64,000 bases of DNA from Escherichia phage O18-011. The notes beneath the pieces were generated by a model. It was given only the letters and a program-made list of their open reading frames with translations. It was not told where the DNA came from and did not search any database. Shown piece by piece: positions 1,980 through 34,184 of the stretch. Location of the stretch: the sequence record NC_070985.1; one strand, given 5' to 3'. The translations under genes and the position numbers were made by a program. Each line of letters begins with the position of its first letter. The stretch's first letter is position 1.

Positions 1980-2402
1980 ATGCCATTACCAGCTAGACAC
2001 CAAAACCGTTTCTTAGTTCTCAAGTGGGATGATATCGAAATGAATCTCACTGAACATGAACTGGATTTGTTCCATGAGCTTTTGTCAGAGATTCGCTCTG
2101 GTATTCCTGAACGTCAGTATGTAGTTATCAGCGATAAACACCATCAAGAGTTTGAAGAAGCTTGGGGTATGAAGTTAGCTTACATCCAGAGAGCTATCAG
2201 AGAAAGAGAAGAGGTTGCTAACCAAAGAGTTGTGGCTCATCTAGTACGAGAGCAACCTCGTGAAGCTAGGGCTAACCATGCACCACCTCCACCTACTCCT
2301 CGGATAGTTGTTAACGGGGCGGTTAGGGCTTACAGTTATGAAGCTACCGTGTTAGATGTGATAGAAGATAACCAAGCATTTACAGATTTACTTTACCAAT
2401 AA
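1980..2402 (+). CDS. hypothetical protein
   Basis: ORF track; starts 1 nt after upstream stop. Confidence 0.5.
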   Translation: MPLPARHQNRFLVLKWDDIEMNLTEHELDLFHELLSEIRSGIPERQYVVISDKHHQEFEEAWGMKLAYIQRAIREREEVANQRVVAHLVREQPREARANHAPPPPTPRIVVNGAVRAYSYEATVLDVIEDNQAFTDLLYQ

Positions 2403-2418
2403 TTTAAAGGAGCATAAA

Positions 2419-4221
2419 ATGAGCAACCCGGACGCTCTCCCATTTTTGACAGAGATGACTGTCGCTGATATAATCTCTAAGCAAGCAAAGCACGGAGTGA
2501 GTTTCAACCGAAGAAATGCTCGGTGGTATGTTCACCTCCTTAAAGAGATTATTGTTAATATTGACAAAGAACTGATTCCTCTCTTACCTAAGATGAGATT
2601 AGATGGCTCTACTTATATGAAGCCATTTAAGAAGTCTGGAGCTTTACAGAAGTGGCCTCAAACATATTGTGATAGGGTTGGACTTAAGAGAGAAGACATT
2701 GGTGGAGCATTCACCTGTGTAGAGTACGTAGACTTTGACCCATCGAAAGATGCCCGAGTTAAAGAAGCCCTTATGGATGAGGGTTTTCTTCCTCCAGAGT
2801 TTAACATATCAAAGAAACCTTGGAATACTTTTGAAATCAAGAAAGATATGCGAAAGTACGGAACATACCAAGCATGGTATTCAGCTTGGATGCGAGGTAA
2901 TGCTAAACAGAAGCAGACAGCCGAGATGGTTGACGCTGATATTAGAAAGTTCTTAGAGAAGCATTTTCGGTTTAAAACTAAGAACTACATGAAGGCTTAT
3001 GTATTTGGTTTAGGTTTAAATCCTAACCGACGTAGACCTATCACTTTTGATGAGATTAAGATAGCACTAGCTACCTCAAACAAGTGGCCTACAGCTCCTA
3101 CAAACCTCGAGGAGACTCTTGAAGAAGGGTTAGGGGGTGAGCTAGGGAGTGTCGGAAGTTTGCTTAAGAGACGCGTTGTAGCGGCTCACAGGCTAGGTCT
3201 TATCAGTGGACTCATAGCAAAGGAACGCGAAGATGGTAAACTTTCGGCAGAAGCTAACAGCTGCGCTACGCCGACTTTTCGATTCAAACATCGTATCGTG
3301 GTTAATATTCCCTCCCGTGGTTTGTTTGGTCATGAGTGTCGCAGTTTGTTTGAATCTGACTATAACTCAGATAGTGATCACTCTCGTCCTTTCATTATTA
3401 CTAACGTTGTTCCTGATGGTTGTTATATACGAAAAGGTACTAACGTAATTTACGAGAAAGGTAAGCCGGGGAAGAAAGACAAACCTGTAGGTGCTTACAA
3501 ATATTACATACCCGCTGGTAAAGAGGTATTCTTAGGGTATGATGGTTCTGGATTAGAATTGCGTATGCTCGCACACTACCTCATTAAAGAGTGTAGGGAT
3601 ATGCTTGCTGAAGCAATTGAAGAGAACAATCCAGCTAAGAAAGCTCTGGCAGAACGTGGTTTAGCTTCTGCTATTATGTATCGTGATATTCTCCTTGAAG
3701 GTGATATCCACTCCCACAACCAGAAACTTGCTGGTCTTCCTACTCGTGACAACGCTAAGACGTTAAACAACATGCGAGCACGTTTCTTGGCAGAGAACCC
3801 ATGTATTGCAATCCTCATTGATCGTATGACAGAGAAAGCTGCTCAAGGATACTTGATTGGTGTTGATGGTCGTAAGATTACAATGAGACGAGATTCCACT
3901 GGTAAGGTTATGGTTCATAAAGCACTTAACACTCTCCTGCAATGTGCTGGTGCTGTTGTTATGAAATATGCTATGATGTTCCTTAACAAGTGGATTGAGA
4001 AGGATGGGGTTCGTTGTGCTAAGGTAATTGATATGCATAAACTTCATTGTGCATGTAAAAGTTGGATGGATGAGGGCCAGTTCTCAGTTAATCGTAACGA
4101 TGTACAGAAACTCAAAGAGCACACCGAGCTTTGTGTTAAGAAGGCTGGTGAGTATTTGAACATGGAATGTCCTCTGGCATCTGATTGTCAGATTGGACTT
4201 AACTGGATGCATACACACTAA
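2419..4221 (+). CDS. family-A (T7 gp5-like) DNA polymerase, polymerase domain only
   Basis: Strong SD AAAGGAG; motif A GYDGSGLELRMLAHY; PTRDNAKT and GVDGRK...ALNTLLQCAGA and C-terminal NWMHTH align to T7 DNA polymerase as I recall it; no 3'-5' exonuclease motifs seen. Confidence 0.75.
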   Translation: MSNPDALPFLTEMTVADIISKQAKHGVSFNRRNARWYVHLLKEIIVNIDKELIPLLPKMRLDGSTYMKPFKKSGALQKWPQTYCDRVGLKREDIGGAFTCVEYVDFDPSKDARVKEALMDEGFLPPEFNISKKPWNTFEIKKDMRKYGTYQAWYSAWMRGNAKQKQTAEMVDADIRKFLEKHFRFKTKNYMKAYVFGLGLNPNRRRPITFDEIKIALATSNKWPTAPTNLEETLEEGLGGELGSVGSLLKRRVVAAHRLGLISGLIAKEREDGKLSAEANSCATPTFRFKHRIVVNIPSRGLFGHECRSLFESDYNSDSDHSRPFIITNVVPDGCYIRKGTNVIYEKGKPGKKDKPVGAYKYYIPAGKEVFLGYDGSGLELRMLAHYLIKECRDMLAEAIEENNPAKKALAERGLASAIMYRDILLEGDIHSHNQKLAGLPTRDNAKTLNNMRARFLAENPCIAILIDRMTEKAAQGYLIGVDGRKITMRRDSTGKVMVHKALNTLLQCAGAVVMKYAMMFLNKWIEKDGVRCAKVIDMHKLHCACKSWMDEGQFSVNRNDVQKLKEHTELCVKKAGEYLNMECPLASDCQIGLNWMHTH

Positions 4222-4226
4222 GGTGA

Positions 4227-4595
4227 GTGATGAAAGAAACCAATATCATCTACAGAACATTGAGATGTTTAGCTAAAGAGAGGGGGATGGAGGATTTCCT
4301 CCTCCAATATTATGAAATAGCTAAGACTGGAATTTATCCAAAATGGTTTAGTGAAGATCACGGATTATGCTTCAACTTCCGCTGTTATAAGAGATATCAC
4401 TATTTCACAAAGCATTTAGATATTGACGACATGAAGAATATGTTTAATCGAGAAGAATTCTTGAACCCAGCATATCCCTTCGGATGTGATCAATATTTTA
4501 GAGATAGAGACAACGGGGCACATCATAAGAATCCAAAACGACGGGCTTGGATTAAAAATACACTGAAAACTCTATATAGTATTGAGGTTGAGTGA
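4227..4595 (+). CDS. hypothetical protein
   Basis: ORF track; SD AGGTGA upstream; start may be ATG at 4230. Confidence 0.45.
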   Translation: MMKETNIIYRTLRCLAKERGMEDFLLQYYEIAKTGIYPKWFSEDHGLCFNFRCYKRYHYFTKHLDIDDMKNMFNREEFLNPAYPFGCDQYFRDRDNGAHHKNPKRRAWIKNTLKTLYSIEVE

Positions 4596-4786
4596 TGGGT
4601 ATTAAAGGCTATTATGAATCTTGGGCCGTCTTCAGCGGTGGCTCCACTCTCGTAGCATTAAATGGTCAACTGTGTATCTTTGAGACAGAGAACTTAGCAA
4701 TAACCAAAGCAGCAGAGTTAGTTCGAAAGTTTCCAAACAAGACATTCACAGTTAAAAGGATAGAAGTACCTGCATTGGTAGAGTGA
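4595..4786 (+). CDS. hypothetical small protein
   Basis: ATG at 4595 overlapping upstream TGA (ATGA-type coupling). Confidence 0.4.
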   Translation: MGIKGYYESWAVFSGGSTLVALNGQLCIFETENLAITKAAELVRKFPNKTFTVKRIEVPALVE

Positions 4787-4841
4787 ATAAATAAGACGAA
4801 TGAACTATTCTTATTGATTGGTTCGTAACAAGGAGATTGAA

Positions 4842-4970
4842 GTGGAAGAGATGCCATCGGATTGGTGTTATCGTCAGAGCGCCATCTGTAACGAACAAGG
4901 ACGTCCTGATGAAGCTGAGTTTTATTTAGAACTTGCTGAACTGTGGAAAGAGCGAGAGGAGAAAGAATGA
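4842..4970 (+). CDS. hypothetical small protein (about 40 aa)
   Basis: SD AAGGAG at 4830-4835, GTG 4842 or ATG 4851 start; stop overlaps next start. Confidence 0.3.
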   Translation: MEEMPSDWCYRQSAICNEQGRPDEAEFYLELAELWKEREEKE

Positions 4971-5137
4971 TGGAAGGTATCTACCGTAAGCCGCCTCCGA
5001 AATACAACATCCTTTATACTGATGCAACTGGTGAGTTTAGAAGTGTGTTAGTTTACACGGATGAAGAACGAAACCAAATGGTTGCTGCTATTGAAGCCAA
5101 TGGCGGTACAATCATGCGAATTTATAACATAACATAA
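4967..5137 (+). CDS. hypothetical small protein
   Basis: ATG 4967 after GAGGAG; in frame with track ORF 4943-5137. Confidence 0.35.
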   Translation: MMEGIYRKPPPKYNILYTDATGEFRSVLVYTDEERNQMVAAIEANGGTIMRIYNIT

Positions 5138-5146
5138 GGAATATCA

Positions 5147-5323
5147 ATGACTGCTTCTGAATTAAAAGAAACCCTGTCCACCGAAGAAGGTAAAGCTTTC
5201 TTCCTAACTCAAGTACACTCTATGGGTAAAGATGCCCTTCGCCAAGCAGTTGTTGAGCTTACTGGTGTAGTGATTGACTTGAGTATTGAAAATGAAACAC
5301 TTGAAGCTAAAGTGAATAGTTAA
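5147..5323 (+). CDS. hypothetical small acidic protein (58 aa)
   Basis: SD TAAGGA 6 nt upstream of ATG 5147; followed by terminator. Confidence 0.45.
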   Translation: MTASELKETLSTEEGKAFFLTQVHSMGKDALRQAVVELTGVVIDLSIENETLEAKVNS

Positions 5324-5328
5324 ATAAG

Positions 5329-5356
5329 AAGCTGCCTTAGGGCGGCTTTTCTTGTC
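5329..5356 (+). terminator. rho-independent terminator
   Basis: AAGCTGCC-ttag-GGCGGCTT hairpin then TTCTTGTC. Confidence 0.55.
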
Positions 5357-5370
5357 TAAAGGATTTAGAA

Positions 5371-5508
5371 ATGTTAGAATCTGAATGTGATAAATGTGGT
5401 TCGGTGTCTAAAAGGATAGACACACAATGGTCAGAGATCTTCGAAACACCTGTCCATTTATATAAATGTCCTATTTGTGGTCATGAACACGAGGAGCTAG
5501 GTGAATGA
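5371..5508 (+). CDS. small zinc-ribbon-like protein (45 aa)
   Basis: ATG 5371; two Cys pairs CDKCG...CPICG; stop overlaps next start. Confidence 0.35.
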   Translation: MLESECDKCGSVSKRIDTQWSEIFETPVHLYKCPICGHEHEELGE

Positions 5509-5897
5509 ATATTGGTTTAGATTACGATGATACTTACACCTCAGATAAGAAGCTGTGGCGCTCTGTGGTGGCATTAATGCAAGCCAAAGGCTATGATGTA
5601 CGTTTTGTAACTTATCGCTTTGCAGAGCCTAATGGGTACGATAATCACGACATTAAGATTGATGCAGAGTGTTTGCAGATTCCTATCATCTTTTGCAATG
5701 GTGTTCAGAAAGATGACGTATGTCGCCAGTTAGGTTTCTTTGTAGATATCTGGATTGACGACTTCCCTGTTGGAATCCCTAAGAAAGACCACCTAGATGG
5801 GATGCTGAAGGGTGTAAGACTTAATGACCTTAGGGCAGCACCTCCTGTAGAAATAGCCGCTCCTGTGTACTCTGAAGAGCCTCTGGTAATTCGATGA
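5505..5897 (+). CDS. possible HAD-superfamily phosphatase/nucleotidase
   Basis: N-terminal LDYDDT fits HAD motif I (DxDxT); later VDIWIDDF fits motif IV; assignment by eye only. Confidence 0.4.
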   Translation: MNIGLDYDDTYTSDKKLWRSVVALMQAKGYDVRFVTYRFAEPNGYDNHDIKIDAECLQIPIIFCNGVQKDDVCRQLGFFVDIWIDDFPVGIPKKDHLDGMLKGVRLNDLRAAPPVEIAAPVYSEEPLVIR

Positions 5898-6073
5898 AGA
5901 AGATAATCCTTTGGACTTTAGGTATAGCCCTATTCCTGTATCTAATAGATATCGGAGGGGATGCCAGTAGAGAAGACTGTGAAGTACGAATGTCTCAAGA
6001 ATTTAAGTCAGAGACTAAGTGGGTTAACGGTCGATGCTATGTAAGAGATTGGGGAAGGGCAACGTCTCGATGA
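5894..6073 (+). CDS. small membrane protein (59 aa)
   Basis: ATG 5894 overlapping upstream stop; N-terminal hydrophobic helix IILWTLGIALFLYLI. Confidence 0.35.
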   Translation: MKKIILWTLGIALFLYLIDIGGDASREDCEVRMSQEFKSETKWVNGRCYVRDWGRATSR

Positions 6074-7968: not shown

Positions 7969-7992
7969 AGCCACCTTCGGGTGGCTTTTTTC
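7969..7992 (+). terminator. rho-independent terminator
   Basis: AGCCACC-ttcg-GGTGGCT hairpin followed by TTTTTT. Confidence 0.65.
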
Positions 7993-17052: not shown

Positions 17053-17119
17053 AACGTCTCCTTTTATAAATAAAAATGTCCTACCCCCTATATACATTAT
17101 AGAAGGCAGGACTTAGGTC

Positions 17120-26709: not shown

Positions 26710-27513
26710 TTAGCTAATACGTCTCCAAATGTGAGCCGCTCTGAATGGTGGCAAAGTATTAATAGGTTGACGAGAAATATCATCACGACCAAGACTCACA
26801 CTACCAGAGATTGTATGAGTGTGTGTATCATTCTCAGTTCTCTGACTATAACCACCACCCGGACTGTACCAGTTAGGTGAGCTGTTGTGACCACTAGCAT
26901 CCCCACGACCAAATACCATGTTGTGGTTGTGAGTGTTACTGGATAGAGAGAAGCTGGAGCCATTAACTGTCATCAAAGGTACGTTCTCTGTACGAATGGT
27001 ATTGAAGACACGACCACCTGTACCACCTGCTTGGAACTCGACTCTCTGAGCATTAGGAACAGAGCCATCAGGGTTTACAACACCAGTACCCATAATGACA
27101 CCAGTAACTTTAGCCCAAGAACCAAACCCTAGGGAGATTGAGTCACCGGGGTTAATATCTTCTTCAGTGATGTAGTAAGAACCAATTCGATAGAGCTTAT
27201 TCTCCATCCAGTTTTTCATGAACGCTTCCATCTGGCCTTTAGTAACAACGTCCTTGTCACCAGTCCCCGGAGTGACGTTCTTAATCATTAGACCACCAAC
27301 ATCCATTGCATCACCAGTAAACTTAAGTTTCTCTGACATAATCTTAAAAGTGTCAGAATCAATATCAACTGGTTCTGTGACATTGGGGAATGTGTTCTGT
27401 AGTGTTTGTTTAATGAGGCGGATTTGAGCCGCCCCTTCGTAGATGTAATCCCTATCTCTAGGATAGAGAGGGTTTAAGTCGGTAACAACTACCGCATTAG
27501 TTTCGATAGCCAT
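26710..27513 (-). CDS. tail protein, function unknown
   Basis: ORF track; Gly/Ser/His-rich C-terminal region. Confidence 0.45.
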   Translation of the reverse strand: MAIETNAVVVTDLNPLYPRDRDYIYEGAAQIRLIKQTLQNTFPNVTEPVDIDSDTFKIMSEKLKFTGDAMDVGGLMIKNVTPGTGDKDVVTKGQMEAFMKNWMENKLYRIGSYYITEEDINPGDSISLGFGSWAKVTGVIMGTGVVNPDGSVPNAQRVEFQAGGTGGRVFNTIRTENVPLMTVNGSSFSLSSNTHNHNMVFGRGDASGHNSSPNWYSPGGGYSQRTENDTHTHTISGSVSLGRDDISRQPINTLPPFRAAHIWRRIS

Positions 27514-27525
27514 AAGGCACCTCCA

Positions 27526-28017
27526 TTAGTATTTACCTTCAGTGTAAAGATCAGCTTCTGCAACCCTTCTGTTATGAAGACCCTGATTTCTCTGCTTTTC
27601 TCCCCTGACTGTTATTTTATCCCAACGAAGAAATTCGGAATAAACATCCCCTTTCACTTCTCCATTGATAACCTTCCTTAACTTAGATGTCCTCAAAGCC
27701 CCACTGCCAACATTGAAGTTGAAAGAAGTGAGTGCATCAAACTCATGAACTAGTAAAGGAACCTTTATGTTCTTCTGAGTAGCACGAACAGAGTCTTGTG
27801 TGTCTCTATCTAGCAGAGCTAGACAATCCTCTATAGAATATGTTAATCCTTGCCTAACCGGATAACCATTCATATCGCGCGTAGCCCCTACACATATCGT
27901 CCAGATACCTGCGGAATCTTTATAAGCCTTGGTTCTCATACCCTCATGCTTCATGATGAATTCCATTCCAGCTGGGCTTAAGTTTAGTTGTACAGGTGGC
28001 AATGCGGCGTTATCCAT
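27526..28017 (-). CDS. lysozyme (GH24, T4-lysozyme-like muramidase)
   Basis: IMKHEGMRTKAYKDSAGIWTICVGAT: Glu-9 aa-Asp-6 aa-Thr spacing matches the T4 lysozyme catalytic triad. Confidence 0.75.
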   Translation of the reverse strand: MDNAALPPVQLNLSPAGMEFIMKHEGMRTKAYKDSAGIWTICVGATRDMNGYPVRQGLTYSIEDCLALLDRDTQDSVRATQKNIKVPLLVHEFDALTSFNFNVGSGALRTSKLRKVINGEVKGDVYSEFLRWDKITVRGEKQRNQGLHNRRVAEADLYTEGKY

Positions 28018-28045
28018 TTCTAACCTCCTTTGTGGTCCCTTTAAA

Positions 28046-28264
28046 TTAAGGTAGTATCTTTCTCAGAGCGTTAGATTCAGCATCAGGGCAAATAACAACT
28101 AGATTATTTTGGATGGTTCGCTGCTTACATTGAGAACTAAGTTTCTCTACTGGAGCAGGTGCTGTAACTAATGGATGAACTGCGCTTACAGGGACTGCGG
28201 TTGATACCACAACACCTGCACCTAAACAGATTAAACCGTATGCAGCTTGTTTCATCATTTTCAT
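28046..28264 (-). CDS. small secreted or membrane protein
   Basis: N-terminal hydrophobic segment AAYGLICLGAGVVVSTAVPVSA; no lipobox; directly upstream of lysozyme. Confidence 0.45.
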   Translation of the reverse strand: MKMMKQAAYGLICLGAGVVVSTAVPVSAVHPLVTAPAPVEKLSSQCKQRTIQNNLVVICPDAESNALRKILP

Positions 28265-28333
28265 TTACGTATCTCCTATATATTAACCTCTTGGGATATA
28301 TTAGTTTCATTACCTATTAGCTCTAGTTACTAC

Positions 28334-28350
28334 TAAAGCCCCCGAAGGGG
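28334..28350 (-). terminator. UUCG-loop hairpin downstream of tail spike gene
   Basis: - strand GCCCC-TTCG-GGGGC then TTTA; same 16-mer also at 30577-30592. Confidence 0.35.
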
Positions 28351-28357
28351 CAGTAGT

Positions 28358-30565
28358 TTATTTACTTGCCTTTAGATCGGCAATCTCAGCTTTCAACGCA
28401 TCAATTTCAGCGATGAGTTTCTGCACAACGTGCATGGTATCCAGAAGCATTGGCGTGGTGTCCAGTTCCTTCTGCTCAACCATAGGATCGCCGATATTTT
28501 TACCCGGATACATTCTGGTTTTCACATACAGGCTATCTACCGTCTCAGCTTGTTGTGCGATGAGGCCACGGCGCTGACGCTCTTGTTCATCGTTGTTGTA
28601 GATGAACGTTACGAACTGCAAAGCCTTCAGATTCTGCCATGCTTTGTCGACAGTTGTTGGCGTAATATCATGCTTAACACGCGAGTCGGATACACCGTTG
28701 CGCGTGTATGTAAACTCTCCTTGTTCTGTAGACCCCCAGAATTGACCGTCCACACCAAACATGTATCTACACCAAGAGCTATCAGAGCCGATTGATATTA
28801 CCGCCGAACCGAAATTGTACGAACTCTCGGGCCAGATGTATTGGTGAAAACCAACTTTCGTCGGGTAGGCGTCAGGACGTACAGCACCAATAGAAAATCC
28901 TAGTACTAAAGTATCTGAAGCGGTTGATTCCAGCACCCTGTCAACCCCACCCGATGTTAAGTCGGTGTGTGATGCGGTTGAAACGTTATCCCAACTTGAG
29001 GTGGTAGTGTACATGTTAACTCGGTTTGAACTTCCAGTTTTCCTGAAGTCCACTGTACCATCTTCATAGAATTTATAGGCGTGTTTGCCTGCCCCTTCTG
29101 CCTCAATAACAGCCGCGCCAGGAGAACCCCAGACAGTGTCCGAGTATAGACGAGCAAACCGCTTACCTTCCTGGTTAGAATACTCAGATATCACCTCACC
29201 ACCACGAACAGTGGTACCGGACGAAGGAGCGGTCGCGTCTGCGTTCTTAACACTCCACGACGTGTTGGCCGCCACGAAACCACCAGAAGCACGGATTACC
29301 CAGACGCCATAAAAAGAATTAGGTCGTATCTCTGACACACTCTGTCGACCGTACACAGGACTGCTTTTACTTGCTGAAAAGTCTGTGCCGAATGACTGTT
29401 GACCGCTAGTGACAGAACCAATATTAATCGCTGAATCAGTGACTGACCCGCCTGCAAAGAAGGCTCCGCTACGGTTTTGCACTAAGGAGTATACGCCACC
29501 GTTGTAGACGAAGCTACTCGTGGTGAAGCCACCTTTTATATCTGGTGCTGCTGACTCTTCAACGCGACCATTATGCGACGAATCACCTCCGTCACCACGA
29601 CCGAAAAGTGCAGGCACGCTACCAGACTGCACACCGTTACGGTCAGGTACGCGGAAGGTTGTCGTCCCGTTACCAAGCGAGTATTTACCGCGTTTTGCTG
29701 GGTCCGCCAGCCAGTCTGTATCACTGATAGGTGACAGCATTTGCGCATAAGCCCAAAGTTCAGGCCAGTCTGCGCGATTAAGCAATTGCCCGTCTGACAC
29801 TACCTCATATGGCTGAATGTATGCACGGCTATCGCGTAAGTGGAAATCACCAATACCAAAGTTAGAAATACCACTCATGGTAGGACCACCAGAGCCACCT
29901 CCACTGTTACGAAGCTGTCTCATAGTCACAGCGTCATAGTCACCCACACCGTCTGCGATTGTTACAGGCTGTTGGAAAGTTACCTTCTGAGTAAACTGTT
30001 TGATATCAGAGTTAATTCCTGTACGGTTCACACCAATAGTACGACCTTTAGAGTCCTTAACATAAGAGCCAATGGCTGCAAATGGTAAATCTTCAATCTC
30101 AGGACGGAAACGTTTAGAGTAAACTGGATATTTAGTTTCTACACCAGAGTCGTTCTTATCAACAACCACAACACGACCAGCAGAGTGAATCTCTACTCCT
30201 TGAACAGAAGACTCGTAACTTCCAAGTTTAATAGAGTTCTCTGTAGTGACCTTAATCATATCCACAGATTCCACACCATTAGCTCCAGCAGAACGGAAAG
30301 GGATATTATTATCTACGAAAGGGTCAGCTTTAAACAAAGCACCTTCCATGATAGGTTGAATAGAATCTAAAACATAAGTCTTAGAAGCACCTTCAGTTTT
30401 TGTTTGATAGGTATCTTCCGCATCTGTCTTCTGTAGGTATTTACCAGTAAGATCAACTGCACCAGCAACTCCATCTACAGTGGAGACACCAACAACCGCA
30501 GCATCTCTGGTTACTACTACATGAGGCATCATTATGCCAGATTTGGGCATTAACTCTCTAGCCAT
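28358..30565 (-). CDS. tail spike / L-shaped fibre with C-terminal intramolecular chaperone (S74-type) domain
   Basis: 735 aa; C-terminus ...DSRVKHDITP...LYVKTRMYP...LLDTMHVVQKLIAEIDALKAEIADLKASK resembles autoproteolytic chaperone domains of endosialidase-type tail spikes. Confidence 0.65.
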   Translation of the reverse strand: MARELMPKSGIMMPHVVVTRDAAVVGVSTVDGVAGAVDLTGKYLQKTDAEDTYQTKTEGASKTYVLDSIQPIMEGALFKADPFVDNNIPFRSAGANGVESVDMIKVTTENSIKLGSYESSVQGVEIHSAGRVVVVDKNDSGVETKYPVYSKRFRPEIEDLPFAAIGSYVKDSKGRTIGVNRTGINSDIKQFTQKVTFQQPVTIADGVGDYDAVTMRQLRNSGGGSGGPTMSGISNFGIGDFHLRDSRAYIQPYEVVSDGQLLNRADWPELWAYAQMLSPISDTDWLADPAKRGKYSLGNGTTTFRVPDRNGVQSGSVPALFGRGDGGDSSHNGRVEESAAPDIKGGFTTSSFVYNGGVYSLVQNRSGAFFAGGSVTDSAINIGSVTSGQQSFGTDFSASKSSPVYGRQSVSEIRPNSFYGVWVIRASGGFVAANTSWSVKNADATAPSSGTTVRGGEVISEYSNQEGKRFARLYSDTVWGSPGAAVIEAEGAGKHAYKFYEDGTVDFRKTGSSNRVNMYTTTSSWDNVSTASHTDLTSGGVDRVLESTASDTLVLGFSIGAVRPDAYPTKVGFHQYIWPESSYNFGSAVISIGSDSSWCRYMFGVDGQFWGSTEQGEFTYTRNGVSDSRVKHDITPTTVDKAWQNLKALQFVTFIYNNDEQERQRRGLIAQQAETVDSLYVKTRMYPGKNIGDPMVEQKELDTTPMLLDTMHVVQKLIAEIDALKAEIADLKASK

Positions 30566-30576
30566 TTAAATCTCCT

Positions 30577-30593
30577 TAAAGCCCCCGAAGGGA
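30577..30593 (-). other. UUCG-loop hairpin in 5' leader of tail spike gene
   Basis: Same 16-mer TAAAGCCCCCGAAGGG (+ strand) as at 28334-28349; sits just upstream of the tail spike RBS. Confidence 0.35.
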
Positions 30594-30671
30594 GCATTGT
30601 TAAATTACTTAGAAGGCATTTCAACACGAACTGATATGAAAGCATCATCAGGGATATCAATTAGGCCCCCG

Positions 30672-30788
30672 TCAAAAACCTTCCAACTCATTTCTAGCAA
30701 AAGCTGGGATAGTCTCTAAGGGTTTGAACAGGTCCGAAGACCTGTTTTCTTCCTGTACGACAACCTCTTCTTCGAAGTCAAACCTCAT
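30672..30788 (-). CDS. hypothetical small acidic protein (38 aa)
   Basis: ATG overlapping upstream TGA (TGATG); RBS AGGAG 5 nt upstream; below track cutoff. Confidence 0.3.
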   Translation of the reverse strand: MRFDFEEEVVVQEENRSSDLFKPLETIPAFARNELEGF

Positions 30789-30991
30789 CAATCTCCTGAT
30801 TGCGGAGGTGGCCCCTTAACATACCCACCTGTCTCTGGGTCGTAGAAATCACCCAACCAGAAGCCACCCTCTGCTGGAAGCACTAGGTAATCCAAAAATA
30901 TTGTAGGCAATATGTTGTCAGTATCCCACCGCACAACGTTATCAATGCGAAGGGTTTCCTGATTGATAAAAAAAGCATCTATAATCGTCAT
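30788..30991 (-). CDS. hypothetical small protein (possible fibre assembly factor)
   Basis: ORF track; RBS AGGAGCC; directly after tail fibre gene. Confidence 0.35.
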   Translation of the reverse strand: MTIIDAFFINQETLRIDNVVRWDTDNILPTIFLDYLVLPAEGGFWLGDFYDPETGGYVKGPPPQSGD

Positions 30992-30999
30992 AAAGGCTC

Positions 31000-33321
31000 C
31001 TATGATAATTCAATAATAAGTACGCACCCACCAGCACCGTTACCTCCCGGCTGCTGAGTAACACCAGTGGAACACGCGGTACCACCACCACCACTACCAA
31101 AACCAGAACCATCCACTCCGGGAACCGCGTTGGCTGAGCGTCCACCGCCACCTAGAGAGCTACTCGCACCATGACCGGCTGACGTGGTGGTAGCATTAAA
31201 TACGGCAGCGGCTGTACCAAAGCTGGGTCCAGTGCGAAATAACGCAGCCTGAGTATAGTCATCAGACTGGCTTGTAGGGCCAATGTTGGAAATGCTGGAG
31301 GAAGTAAGACGATTACCCCCAGCCCCGCCAACTACCGAGCAGATGGAACCGAGGGAAGTATCCCCTCCATTACCACCGGGCTGACCCGCTACCCCTAGTC
31401 CACCAGAACCCACAAGGCAACTGTAGGAGGCCGCTAAGGTAGGCAGATATAATAAAGCGGCACTACCAGAGTTACCCCCGCTACCAGCGCTGGCGTTACT
31501 GGCAGGTGGAGTTGTTGAACCACCACCTGCCCCACCACCAGCTTGCAGAAAAACAAACGCAGACTTTGCTGTAGCAGAGGGTGTCCATGTACCAGAAGCT
31601 ATCAGACGCTTAACATCTACTACACGACCAAATATGTTTAATGCAGTAAATAGTTCCGCTAAAGATGTAACACCAGTTCCACCACTAGCAACAGCCAATG
31701 GAGTGCTCAGTGTCTGTACACCGGACCAAGTATTGTCTGCATTAAGGAGCGGTACGGCATCTCCTGATACCCCAGTGTCTTTTAGTGCTGCAGACCCTAG
31801 ACCGAAGTTAGAACGAGCACCATCAGCATCTTTAGCTCCAGTACCTCCTTGAGAGATGGATAATGGTGTTGTGAGTCCAGATAAAGATGTGATGTCAGAA
31901 TTCGCACCAGAAGAGGCAGCGCCTAAGATAGATCTGGAGAGGTGTACGTTCCCTGTAATCTCATCAGGTGCTTGGTTATTTACCGTGACAACATAAGGTT
32001 TCTGGGCTTGTACAGACCCTTTATACTGAGTATCCTTATCAGAATCTGGTGCTCTTATTGCCTCCCCTCCAGTCCAATCTGGGAGTCGAATGTTAATGAA
32101 GTTAGTAGAATCTGCATCAGTAACTCCATCTGCCAATTTACCCCAAGAGAAGTATTGTCTAGCACCAGCCTGCCATTCTGTTTCAGAGACCACAGGAAGC
32201 TGACCACTGATGAGAGATGGGCCTAAATCAAGAGCAGACTCCTTTGATACCAAACGACCATCAGCAGGAAGAACTCCTGGATAGGAGATATTCTTAGTTG
32301 GGTCATAAGGGAACATCACCATCTCACCAAGATATAGAGAAGGGTTTCCTGTTGGAATGGTAATGTCAATGTTACCACTAGAGTCTGGAGAACGAGAGTT
32401 AACGGTAAGGATTCTACCTTCAGTTTTAACAGGAGTTAGTGTTTTGTTAGCAGCAACAGTATAGAATTCATACTTAGTAGCTTCCCAAACTAAGACTTTC
32501 TCTCCAACTTGACGATATTGAGCATCAGCATCAGCTTCTGCTTTTGATTGATATGTCTTGGTAGTTTTGTCAAACTTATCATCAATCTCTTGACGACTAT
32601 ACTGAGCAACGTTCAGAACATTCCCTAAATCAACTGTATCCTTGTTGATTGTTAAGGCAACTTCTCCATCAAGAACTGGACCGCCGTTAACAGAGATAGA
32701 ACGAACAGATGGAATTAAATTAGCAATATTCTCTAGAGTGGTTTTGTGGACGGTATTGTCATCTTTGTCAACATAGAAACCTAAATCTTCTAACTCTGGA
32801 ACACCGGTAGGTGCTGTGTCCAAATCCTTAACAGTACCATCCTTTCCGGGATCACCTTCTGGAATACCTAAAGAGATTACACCAGTGGTCGGATTAAAAG
32901 AACCAGTAGCCGGAGTTCCCGGAGGAAGTGTAGTTACATCAACGGACATTCCTAACAGAATATCAAGCTGATTCTGAACTTCAATAAGTTTCTGATTAAT
33001 GATAGCAACAGCATTGTTAGCATCAGAGACCGCTGCGTTAGTTTGAGCAATTAGAGTCATCAAACGAGCATCTTGATCTATAAAATCCTTCTTAAGATCT
33101 TCAATATCCTGCTTCATTAGAATACCCTGTTGGTATAGGCGTTCTACTTCAGCGACCAGATCATCGATTGTACCAAACTTAGACTCAGCCAGTAATGCCC
33201 AATATTTAGCATCAGATGCATATTCTGCTGCTTGCTTGTAAGCTCCTATAGAGCCTTCAGTAGCACCAAACTGCCCAACGTTATTCACTGCATCCGGTGC
33301 TTGGTTATTATAAACGATCAT
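31000..33321 (-). CDS. tail fibre protein
   Basis: 773 aa; coiled-coil N-part; C-terminal Gly-rich repeats (GGGAGGGSTT...GSGGNSG...GGAGGN). Confidence 0.6.
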   Translation of the reverse strand: MIVYNNQAPDAVNNVGQFGATEGSIGAYKQAAEYASDAKYWALLAESKFGTIDDLVAEVERLYQQGILMKQDIEDLKKDFIDQDARLMTLIAQTNAAVSDANNAVAIINQKLIEVQNQLDILLGMSVDVTTLPPGTPATGSFNPTTGVISLGIPEGDPGKDGTVKDLDTAPTGVPELEDLGFYVDKDDNTVHKTTLENIANLIPSVRSISVNGGPVLDGEVALTINKDTVDLGNVLNVAQYSRQEIDDKFDKTTKTYQSKAEADADAQYRQVGEKVLVWEATKYEFYTVAANKTLTPVKTEGRILTVNSRSPDSSGNIDITIPTGNPSLYLGEMVMFPYDPTKNISYPGVLPADGRLVSKESALDLGPSLISGQLPVVSETEWQAGARQYFSWGKLADGVTDADSTNFINIRLPDWTGGEAIRAPDSDKDTQYKGSVQAQKPYVVTVNNQAPDEITGNVHLSRSILGAASSGANSDITSLSGLTTPLSISQGGTGAKDADGARSNFGLGSAALKDTGVSGDAVPLLNADNTWSGVQTLSTPLAVASGGTGVTSLAELFTALNIFGRVVDVKRLIASGTWTPSATAKSAFVFLQAGGGAGGGSTTPPASNASAGSGGNSGSAALLYLPTLAASYSCLVGSGGLGVAGQPGGNGGDTSLGSICSVVGGAGGNRLTSSSISNIGPTSQSDDYTQAALFRTGPSFGTAAAVFNATTTSAGHGASSSLGGGGRSANAVPGVDGSGFGSGGGGTACSTGVTQQPGGNGAGGCVLIIELS

Positions 33322-34083: not shown

Positions 34084-34149
34084 AGGTTGTCCTCCTTGTT
34101 ATATGTAGACAAAGAATATACATTACACACTGGCTTGTATAGGTCTTAA

Positions 34150-34178
34150 AACGAAAAACCCCGCCCGAAGGCAGGGTC
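34150..34178 (-). terminator. rho-independent terminator after capsid genes
   Basis: - strand ACCCTGCC-ttcg-GGCGGGGT followed by TTTTTCGTT. Confidence 0.5.
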
Positions 34179-34184
34179 TAATTT

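Follow-up and report, generated by a model that had tools for sequence, protein, structure and literature searches.

Two conserved intercistronic RNA hairpins flank the gp15 tail fibre gene of Escherichia phage O18-011

RNA hairpins of the CUUCGG type are common in phage intergenic regions and are tied to mRNA stability and reverse-transcriptase stops (Tuerk et al. 1988, PNAS 85:1364, as cited by Lavysh et al. 2022, PMC8948821). A related hairpin with a GUUCGG loop lies upstream of the sigma gene in the phiEco32-like phage 7-11 (PMC8948821). Here, we describe a pair of hairpins on either side of the long tail fibre gene gp15 of Escherichia phage O18-011 (sequence record NC_070985.1), found in a stretch of 64,000 nucleotides (nt) that is referred to as the window throughout. 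The fibre-locus hairpins are ordinary members of this known class. As in other C(UUCG)G hairpins, a short G+C stem carries a UUCG loop closed by a C-G pair, and the elements are intergenic and on the sense strand; the upstream copy of the window differs in that its predicted fold has lost the tetraloop geometry. C(UUCG)G hairpins are known for roles in mRNA stability or processing rather than for efficient termination, and for the fibre-locus pair we infer a role of this kind. No earlier description of these two hairpins was found in the literature reached.

Several other described systems bear comparison with the locus. Rho-independent terminators share the G+C-rich stem-loop followed by U residues, but the U-tract at the fibre locus is too short (UUUAGUAG, UUUAAGGA) and the genes downstream are essential and have no promoter of their own. 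In the tailspike cassettes of the SP6/K1-5 type, which Scholl et al. are said to have described, the whole gene is reportedly the cassette, with conserved non-coding flanks that contain dyad symmetries. Receptor-binding genes are likewise bounded by conserved non-coding sequence with dyad symmetries at the fibre locus, whereas exchange there is confined to the C-terminal part of each fibre gene. PeSLs are reportedly composite motifs of an early promoter and a stem-loop, tens of base pairs (bp) in length and present in many copies. They form cassettes in T4-type phages (Arbiol et al. 2010, PMC2839356; Comeau et al. 2014, PMC4122927). PeSLs and the fibre-locus hairpins are both repeated intergenic stem-loop motifs, found on the flanks of variable genes and at mosaic junctions; in contrast to PeSLs, the fibre locus has two copies sharing 10-16 nt, no promoter, and resolvable crossovers that are mostly coding. 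PeSLs are the closest known system in which the motifs are thought to be causal, and the fibre locus lacks both the attached promoter and the many long copies. Lastly, frequent horizontal exchange of a T5-like receptor-binding domain with its intramolecular chaperone has been reported for Gordonclarkvirinae, Wifcevirus and Tequintavirus (Humolli et al. 2025, PMC11990801). The C-terminal 420 amino acids (aa) of the window's gp15 and its Lindwurm-like end fit the picture drawn in the parts of that paper concerned with this exchange, which treat protein modules and do not discuss flanking hairpins.

The 16-mers and the hairpins they belong to

An earlier note on this DNA had drawn attention to a 16-mer, TAAAGCCCCCGAAGGG, on both sides of a presumed tail spike gene, once downstream of its stop codon and once in its 5′ leader. 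The observation was borne out at both positions. The two copies are exact, the rest of the window holds no other copy even when up to two mismatches are allowed, and 100 dinucleotide-preserving shuffles gave 0 matches as the chance expectation. The features concerned are as follows.

28334-28349, plus strand: 16-mer copy 1, exact match
30577-30592, plus strand: 16-mer copy 2, exact match, whose first base overlaps the gp15 Shine-Dalgarno sequence
28338-28351, minus strand: downstream hairpin core, GCCCC-UUCG-GGGGC then UUU, which an ACUACU/AGUAGU extension lengthens to 28329-28357 in this genome
30581-30595, minus strand: upstream hairpin, GCUCCC-UUC-GGGGGC, then UUU, then the gp15 Shine-Dalgarno sequence; same site in all 21 gp15-carrying relatives
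28358-30565, minus strand: gp15 homologue, distal long tail fibre, 735 aa (8hqz, PF13884, phrog_6921)

The window belongs to a phiEco32-like podophage (Gordonclarkvirinae) whose backbone near the locus is ~88-95% identical to phiEco32 and NJ01. The local genes are on the minus strand, in the order gp13, gp14-like fibre, 67-aa open reading frame (ORF), gp15 fibre, holin and endolysin. The gene between the 16-mers is homologous to phiEco32 gene 15 and encodes a tail fibre instead of the beta-helix tailspike first supposed. Its product matches the T5-type L-shaped tail fibre structure PDB 8hqz (E = 6e-116), contains a Peptidase_S74 domain (PF13884) at aa 626-676 and matches phrog_6921 end to end. 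It consists of a conserved N-terminal anchor (to ~29620), a receptor-binding part resembling the T5 L-shaped fibre and the Peptidase_S74 intramolecular chaperone, and over its C-terminal 420 aa it shares 54-59% identity with fibres of Tequintavirus (T5-like), Wifcevirus and Nonagvirus.

Each 16-mer makes up the 3′ half of a conserved intercistronic RNA hairpin. Copy 1 comes 6 nt past the gp15 stop codon, in a context that reads AGT AAA TAA ACTACT GCCCC TTCG GGGGC TTT AGTAGT on the minus strand. Copy 2 abuts the start of the gp15 Shine-Dalgarno sequence AAGGAG (30572-30577, minus strand), and here the minus strand reads AAG TAA TTTAACAAT GCTCCC TTC GGGGGC TTT AAGGAG ATTTAA ATG. For comparison, both intergenic regions were extracted from 22 relatives (Kuravirus, Suseptimavirus, Nieuwekanaalvirus and unclassified isolates), 21 of which carry gp15, in a sample drawn from ~120 Gordonclarkvirinae genomes. 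A search of IMG/VR with the holin gave 5 relatives, and GenBank phage records were therefore used.

In all 21 gp15-carrying relatives the upstream hairpin ends 3-4 nt ahead of the gp15 Shine-Dalgarno sequence. The majority form, GCTCCC-TTCG-GGGAGC, has the geometry of the CUUCGG class (GCUCC-CUUCGG-GGAGC). SU7, Bas86 and one IMG contig have GCCCTC-TTCG-GAGGGC, equivalent to two compensatory pair exchanges; the 3′ arm GGGGGC of Bas90 gives a U.G wobble, and Bas89 has a CTCG (CUCG) loop. In phage Paul the position is taken by an unrelated 8-bp stem with a GAAA loop. When the 15 distinct upstream sequences were aligned, 98.9% of cells were paired and both sides had changed in four of the six pairs. 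The covariation score was reached by none of 500 shuffles, and no slid register matched the observed values. Because the base-pair changes are compensatory and are matched by none of the shuffles, the structure of the upstream hairpin is under selection.

The downstream hairpin is the more constant of the two in sequence. GCCCCTTCGGGGGCTTT is unchanged in 21 of the 22 relatives, across three genera (Kuravirus, Suseptimavirus and Nieuwekanaalvirus), and lies 5-9 nt past the gp15 stop; several distinct types can be told apart by the bases immediately 5′ of it and by those from ~10 nt 3′ of it. It has the class geometry (GCCC-CUUCGG-GGGC), and in the window the hairpin with its extension has a predicted folding energy of -16.3 kcal/mol (z = -2.55 against shuffled sequence). 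The remaining relative, IMG/VR contig 3300045988_017452 (L007), carries a different stem at the corresponding site, ACCCCGC-UUCG-GCGGGGU, followed by the same TTTAGTAGTAAG, so that position, loop and UUUAGUAGUAAG tail are retained despite the other stem.

Two relatives depart from the usual layout of the locus. In L007, one fused fibre of 1188 aa (2333-5899) replaces gp14 and gp15, and there is no internal hairpin. Import of its hairpin with a Nonagvirus-like module, suggested by a stem like that of BRET, was rejected, as the C-terminus of the L007 fibre is unrelated. In Bas93 (L015, 5020-5576), three small annotated ORFs come between a short gp15 and the conserved hairpin. According to the BASEL paper, the chaperone domain of Bas93 is truncated, and the three ORFs are probably pieces of a disrupted 3′ module.

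The earlier note had given each copy a GC stem with a UUCG loop. This description fits the downstream copy. Upstream, two pairings are open to the shortened 3′ arm of the window, a 4-bp stem under a UUCG loop and a 6-bp stem under a UUC triloop. The minimum-free-energy fold is the second of these, which includes one G.U pair and has a 3-nt loop, not a UUCG tetraloop.

The same shortening underlies the identity of the two 16-mers. The two hairpins share only ~10 nt in relatives generally, and in phiEco32 and NJ01 the common stretch is CCCTTCGGGG only. The window's upstream hairpin is one base shorter than that of all relatives (GGGGGC versus GGGAGC or GGGGGG), and the loss of this one base from the G-run brings the upstream and downstream hairpins into register, giving 16 nt of identity. 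A 63-nt query around the upstream hairpin returned 74 matching phage records, none of which was identical to the query in having the shortened form; the full-length matches examined among them were at least one base longer, usually 64 bases. Bas90, with six Gs in its run (GGGGGG), is 98% identical to the window in the flanks of this stretch. The simplest history suggested by these sequences would be an A-to-G change, then the loss of one G from a Bas90-like GGGGGG version, either by slippage or as a homopolymer sequencing error. We put at about even the chance that the 16-nt identity is a coincidence or artefact, meaningless in itself and perhaps even a homopolymer miscall, given that it hinges on a G-run of 5 where all relatives have 6 bases and that Bas90, with otherwise near-identical flanks, has GGGGGG at the same place. 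Such an origin would account for the exact 16-mer match alone, and not for two real, conserved hairpins. Among the genomes compared, the exact repeat is private to this phage and incidental.

Operon context and a probable role in the mRNA

The transcription signals nearest to the fibre locus are given below, with the first gene that lies beyond both hairpins.

34118-34125, minus strand: TAATGTAT, late promoter motif of the phage sigma factor, whose next occurrence on the minus strand is 17092-17099
34156-34179, minus strand: canonical intrinsic terminator with a 10-bp stem, UUCG loop and U-tract, which passes the terminator scan, in contrast to both hairpins
28046-28264, minus strand: holin, first gene past the downstream hairpin, which depends on read-through of both hairpins

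The motif at 34118 comes just past the canonical terminator. The positions of the promoter motifs in the window agree with the published maps, in which phage-sigma promoters are found only upstream of genes 6, 13, 26, 40, 58 and 68 in phiEco32 (PMC4331800) and between coding sequences (CDS) 10/11 and 23/24 in SU10 (PMC4281155). Four Rho-independent terminators are reported for SU10, and the text of that paper puts the possible ones of the late region behind CDS 5 and CDS 10 alone, with none at the fibre gene (PMC4281155). In the window, 34156-34179 lies in the spacer that corresponds to the possible SU10 terminator between CDS 10 and 11. Because TAATGTAT occurs near the locus on this strand only at 34118 and 17092, both hairpins are internal to one late operon, and the holin, the endolysin and the genes up to the 17092 promoter need read-through of both. 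Neither a sigma-70-like promoter nor TAATGTAT was found next to either hairpin on the coding strand.

Both hairpins are intergenic and in sense orientation with the minus-strand genes. The window has six intergenic UUCG hairpins with a stem of at least 4 bp, and every one is on the coding strand of its surroundings, which is what a role at the RNA level would predict. The same hairpin with UUUAG is also present 2-7 nt ahead of an ATG in four unrelated viral contigs, with a GGAG Shine-Dalgarno sequence in two of the four.

We consider it probable that both are mRNA-stabilising or attenuating intercistronic hairpins of the CUUCGG class within a late operon. Transcript stabilisation had been the alternative offered in the earlier note, and it is the best fit to elements that are conserved, in sense orientation, selected for structure, internal to an operon and free of a U-tract, the role itself being read from these features. 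The order on the late polycistronic mRNA would be gp14, hairpin, gp15, hairpin, holin, with each hairpin formed by a short G+C stem and a UUCG-type loop, followed by UUUA and no U-tract. Most likely the hairpins would act at the RNA level and block 3′-to-5′ exonucleases, and the fibre-gene segments of the processed transcript would outlast the downstream lysis-gene segments. The hairpins may also pause RNA polymerase or attenuate weakly. The upstream hairpin, 3 nt 5′ of the gp15 Shine-Dalgarno sequence, probably keeps the ribosome-binding site clear of upstream structure.

A 22-nt box, GGTAATGAAACTAATATATCCC, is present in the holin leader (28293-28314, minus strand), 24 nt past the downstream hairpin. 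It is near-invariant across three genera, in variable surroundings, and starts with TAATG, the first five bases of the phage-sigma motif, without the ATGT core. The box could serve as a promoter for the lysis genes or in the control of translation.

Several points weigh against a stabilising or attenuating role. The upstream hairpin of the window folds no better than shuffled sequence (z = -0.1). The downstream stem is invariant in 21 genomes and has no covariation of its own, and this invariance could equally reflect selection on sequence, as at a protein- or DNA-level site, or recombinational homogenisation. The action on the RNA is deduced from the sequence and operon context at this locus, and if the GGTAATGAAACTAATATATCCC box were an unrecognised promoter, the read-through argument would be weakened.

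That last possibility is part of a different explanation, in which the hairpins are genuine intrinsic terminators and the lysis and downstream genes are transcribed from an unmapped promoter in the holin leader. Both G+C stems are followed by a conserved UUU(U)A, the canonical terminators of this phage likewise have UUCG loops, and the strongly conserved box with its TAATG is suitably placed past the downstream hairpin. We nevertheless regard termination as unlikely. The terminator scan, which required at least 5 U in the 8 nt directly after the stem, passed neither hairpin on the coding strand, their tails UUUAGUAG and UUUAAGGA having 4 and 3 U. The gp15 ribosome-binding site begins within 3 nt of the upstream hairpin, leaving no room for a promoter, and stopping there would abolish gp15 expression. 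The published phiEco32 promoters are confined to the six sites listed above, and TAATGAAAC lacks the conserved T of the ATGT core. The Paul and SU7 records, in which other regulatory features are annotated, mark no terminator at the fibre-locus hairpins.

Terminator-like stem-loops with a UUCG loop were seen in the window at 7969-7986 (plus strand), 34156-34179 (minus strand) and 54802-54819 (plus strand). At 7969 and 34156 a run of U adjoins the stem; at 54802 one base intervenes. An Rfam scan of 27500-31500 at E <= 1 matched no family.

Mosaic boundaries in the fibre genes

The earlier note had also suggested that identical flanks could serve as recombination boundaries for exchange of a tail-spike cassette. 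The features that bear on this idea are listed first.

30490-30525, minus strand: 5′ crossover zone inside gp15, from a 50-nt identity profile and alignment
31000-33321, minus strand: gp14 homologue, proximal long tail fibre, with its C-terminal third replaced (Gly_rich_2 domain)
30605-30716, minus strand: frameshifted remnant of the ancestral gp14 3′ end, which aligns to the gp14 3′ ends of phiEco32, NJ01 and Bas90

Pairwise identities of 120-nt segments were computed for 22 sequences (the 21 gp15-carrying relatives and the window) and correlated across junctions. The correlation was 0.27 across the upstream hairpin and 0.19 across the downstream hairpin, against 0.60-0.98 at five control junctions within genes or in the backbone. 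Individual pairs switch sharply at the downstream hairpin: LAMP and phiEco32 are 63% identical in the last 100 nt of gp15 and 99% identical right after the hairpin, IMG2595 and phiEco32 go from 89-95% to 78% across it, and SU7 and Bas94 share 44 identical nt up to the hairpin and diverge from 3 nt after it. In the window, homology to relatives stops near 29620, and the backbone match to phiEco32 and NJ01 restarts exactly at 28351.

A variable fibre module has its 3′ edge at each hairpin, with gp14 closed by the upstream and gp15 by the downstream hairpin, and the 5′ boundary of each variable half lies inside its gene. The first ~315 codons of gp15 are conserved backbone, with 75-87% nucleotide identity in all relatives, and the foreign part covers only 29620-28352. 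The crossover mapped within gp15 lies ~40-75 nt past the ATG, where the sequence changes from phiEco32/Bas90-like upstream to SDYTW1/Paul/LAMP-like downstream. The junction at which the C-terminus of gp14 was replaced is also inside its gene, and the old 3′ end was left as a remnant. This remnant of ~110 nt has a 2-nt deletion and a preserved AAG-TAA end, sits between the hairpin of the imported module and the upstream hairpin, and is a fossil of the recombination that replaced the gp14 C-terminus. Most probably, the hairpins fall on mosaic boundaries because conserved backbone begins again with them, past the variable 3′ half of the fibre genes.

The proposal of cassette boundaries holds in one respect, since relatedness uncouples at each hairpin, the 3′ edge of a module, and is not supported in the form in which it was put. 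The hairpins are at conserved positions across the related loci, but the 16-nt identity is absent from them, the shared sequence there being only CCCTTCGGGG; the swapped unit is the C-terminal two thirds of gp15 rather than the whole gene; and the 5′ crossover is in coding sequence rather than in a flank. Recombination between direct repeats would delete the intervening gene, not exchange it. The hairpins are not a matched pair of recombination sites.

A PeSL-like role remains to be weighed, in which the hairpins are linkers, that is, preferred crossover points through which foreign receptor-binding modules enter the gp14 and gp15 slots or are swapped between them. The collapse of correlation at both junctions, the sharp switches in LAMP/phiEco32 and SU7/Bas94 and the exact restart of backbone homology at 28351 are all consistent with it, as are the similarity of the two intergenic elements (79% over 34 nt) and the gp15-like segment in gp14 of LAMP and SDYTW1. 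However, the first conserved non-coding sequence beyond a diversifying gene end should form a boundary with or without any promotion of recombination by the hairpin. The shared sequence is just 10 nt in most genomes, far below the neighbouring conserved coding stretches (the first ~100 nt of gp15 and the S74 C-terminus), and the crossovers that can be resolved are coding, at +40 to +75 of gp15 and at the gp14 3′ end with its remnant. There is no attached promoter, nor any homology between families, as donor-type fibres in four groups carry different terminators. Linkers of this kind are improbable on balance. A narrower version, to which we give slightly less credence still, would have selection maintain the hairpins as 3′ docking sequences: both fibre genes would end in a similar element made up of stop codon and hairpin, and crossovers would be focused on the hairpin. 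If it were true, receptor-binding modules would move between the gp14 and gp15 slots or from other phages, and the locus would be a podovirus counterpart of the T4 PeSLs.

The last ~130 nt of gp15 are almost identical to the Tequintavirus Lindwurm up to the stop codon, after which the Lindwurm terminator differs. We considered the hairpin as a homology patch between families and rejected it: the fibres of T5-like phages, Wifcevirus, Nonagvirus and Dhillonvirus that share this S74 C-terminus are each followed by a different terminator, and the likeness of CCCTTTGGGG/CCCTTCGGGG to the Lindwurm terminator is not general among donor-type fibres. As a different hairpin follows S74 fibres in four phage groups, the hairpin belongs to the recipient backbone. 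To judge from these alignments, the conserved chaperone coding sequence would make a better homology patch between families.

In LAMP (L016, 3003-3450) and SDYTW1 (L014, 2798-3428), gp14 holds a 440-nt segment ~72% identical to gp15 just before the variable region. In both phages gp14 ends in an apparently coiled-coil C-terminal tail like the one in gp15. It seems that modules have been transferred from one fibre slot to the other.

Engineering of the locus and neighbouring features

The analysis reveals no new mechanism, and its practical value is modest. For host-range engineering of Kuravirus and Gordonclarkvirinae, which are common therapy candidates, the results are a guide to where modules begin and end. 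In gp15, the unit that is swapped in nature starts at about codon 315 and ends with the stop codon. Past this stop, the hairpin and UUUA are worth keeping intact because they are invariant across three genera, and the upstream hairpin because it abuts the gp15 ribosome-binding site. The locus also offers two clean candidates for how CUUCGG hairpins without a U-tract tune late-operon expression in phages.

The remaining features of the neighbourhood are the following.

27526-28017, minus strand: endolysin
30788-30991, minus strand: 67-aa ORF after gp14
30727-30746, minus strand: third UUCG hairpin, AACAGGUC-UUCG-GACCUGUU, which closes the imported gp14 C-terminal module and the 67-aa ORF

The 67-aa ORF matched no Pfam or PHROG family; it may be a fibre chaperone, or not a gene. 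For the imported gp14 tip (Gly_rich_2, phrog_863-like) together with this ORF (window 30720-31830), no DNA donor was found in 50,697 phage records, and protein-level matches of the tip in the same records were confined to short N-proximal stretches. The third hairpin has a predicted folding energy of -13.8 kcal/mol (z = -2.05) and is likewise without a U-tract.

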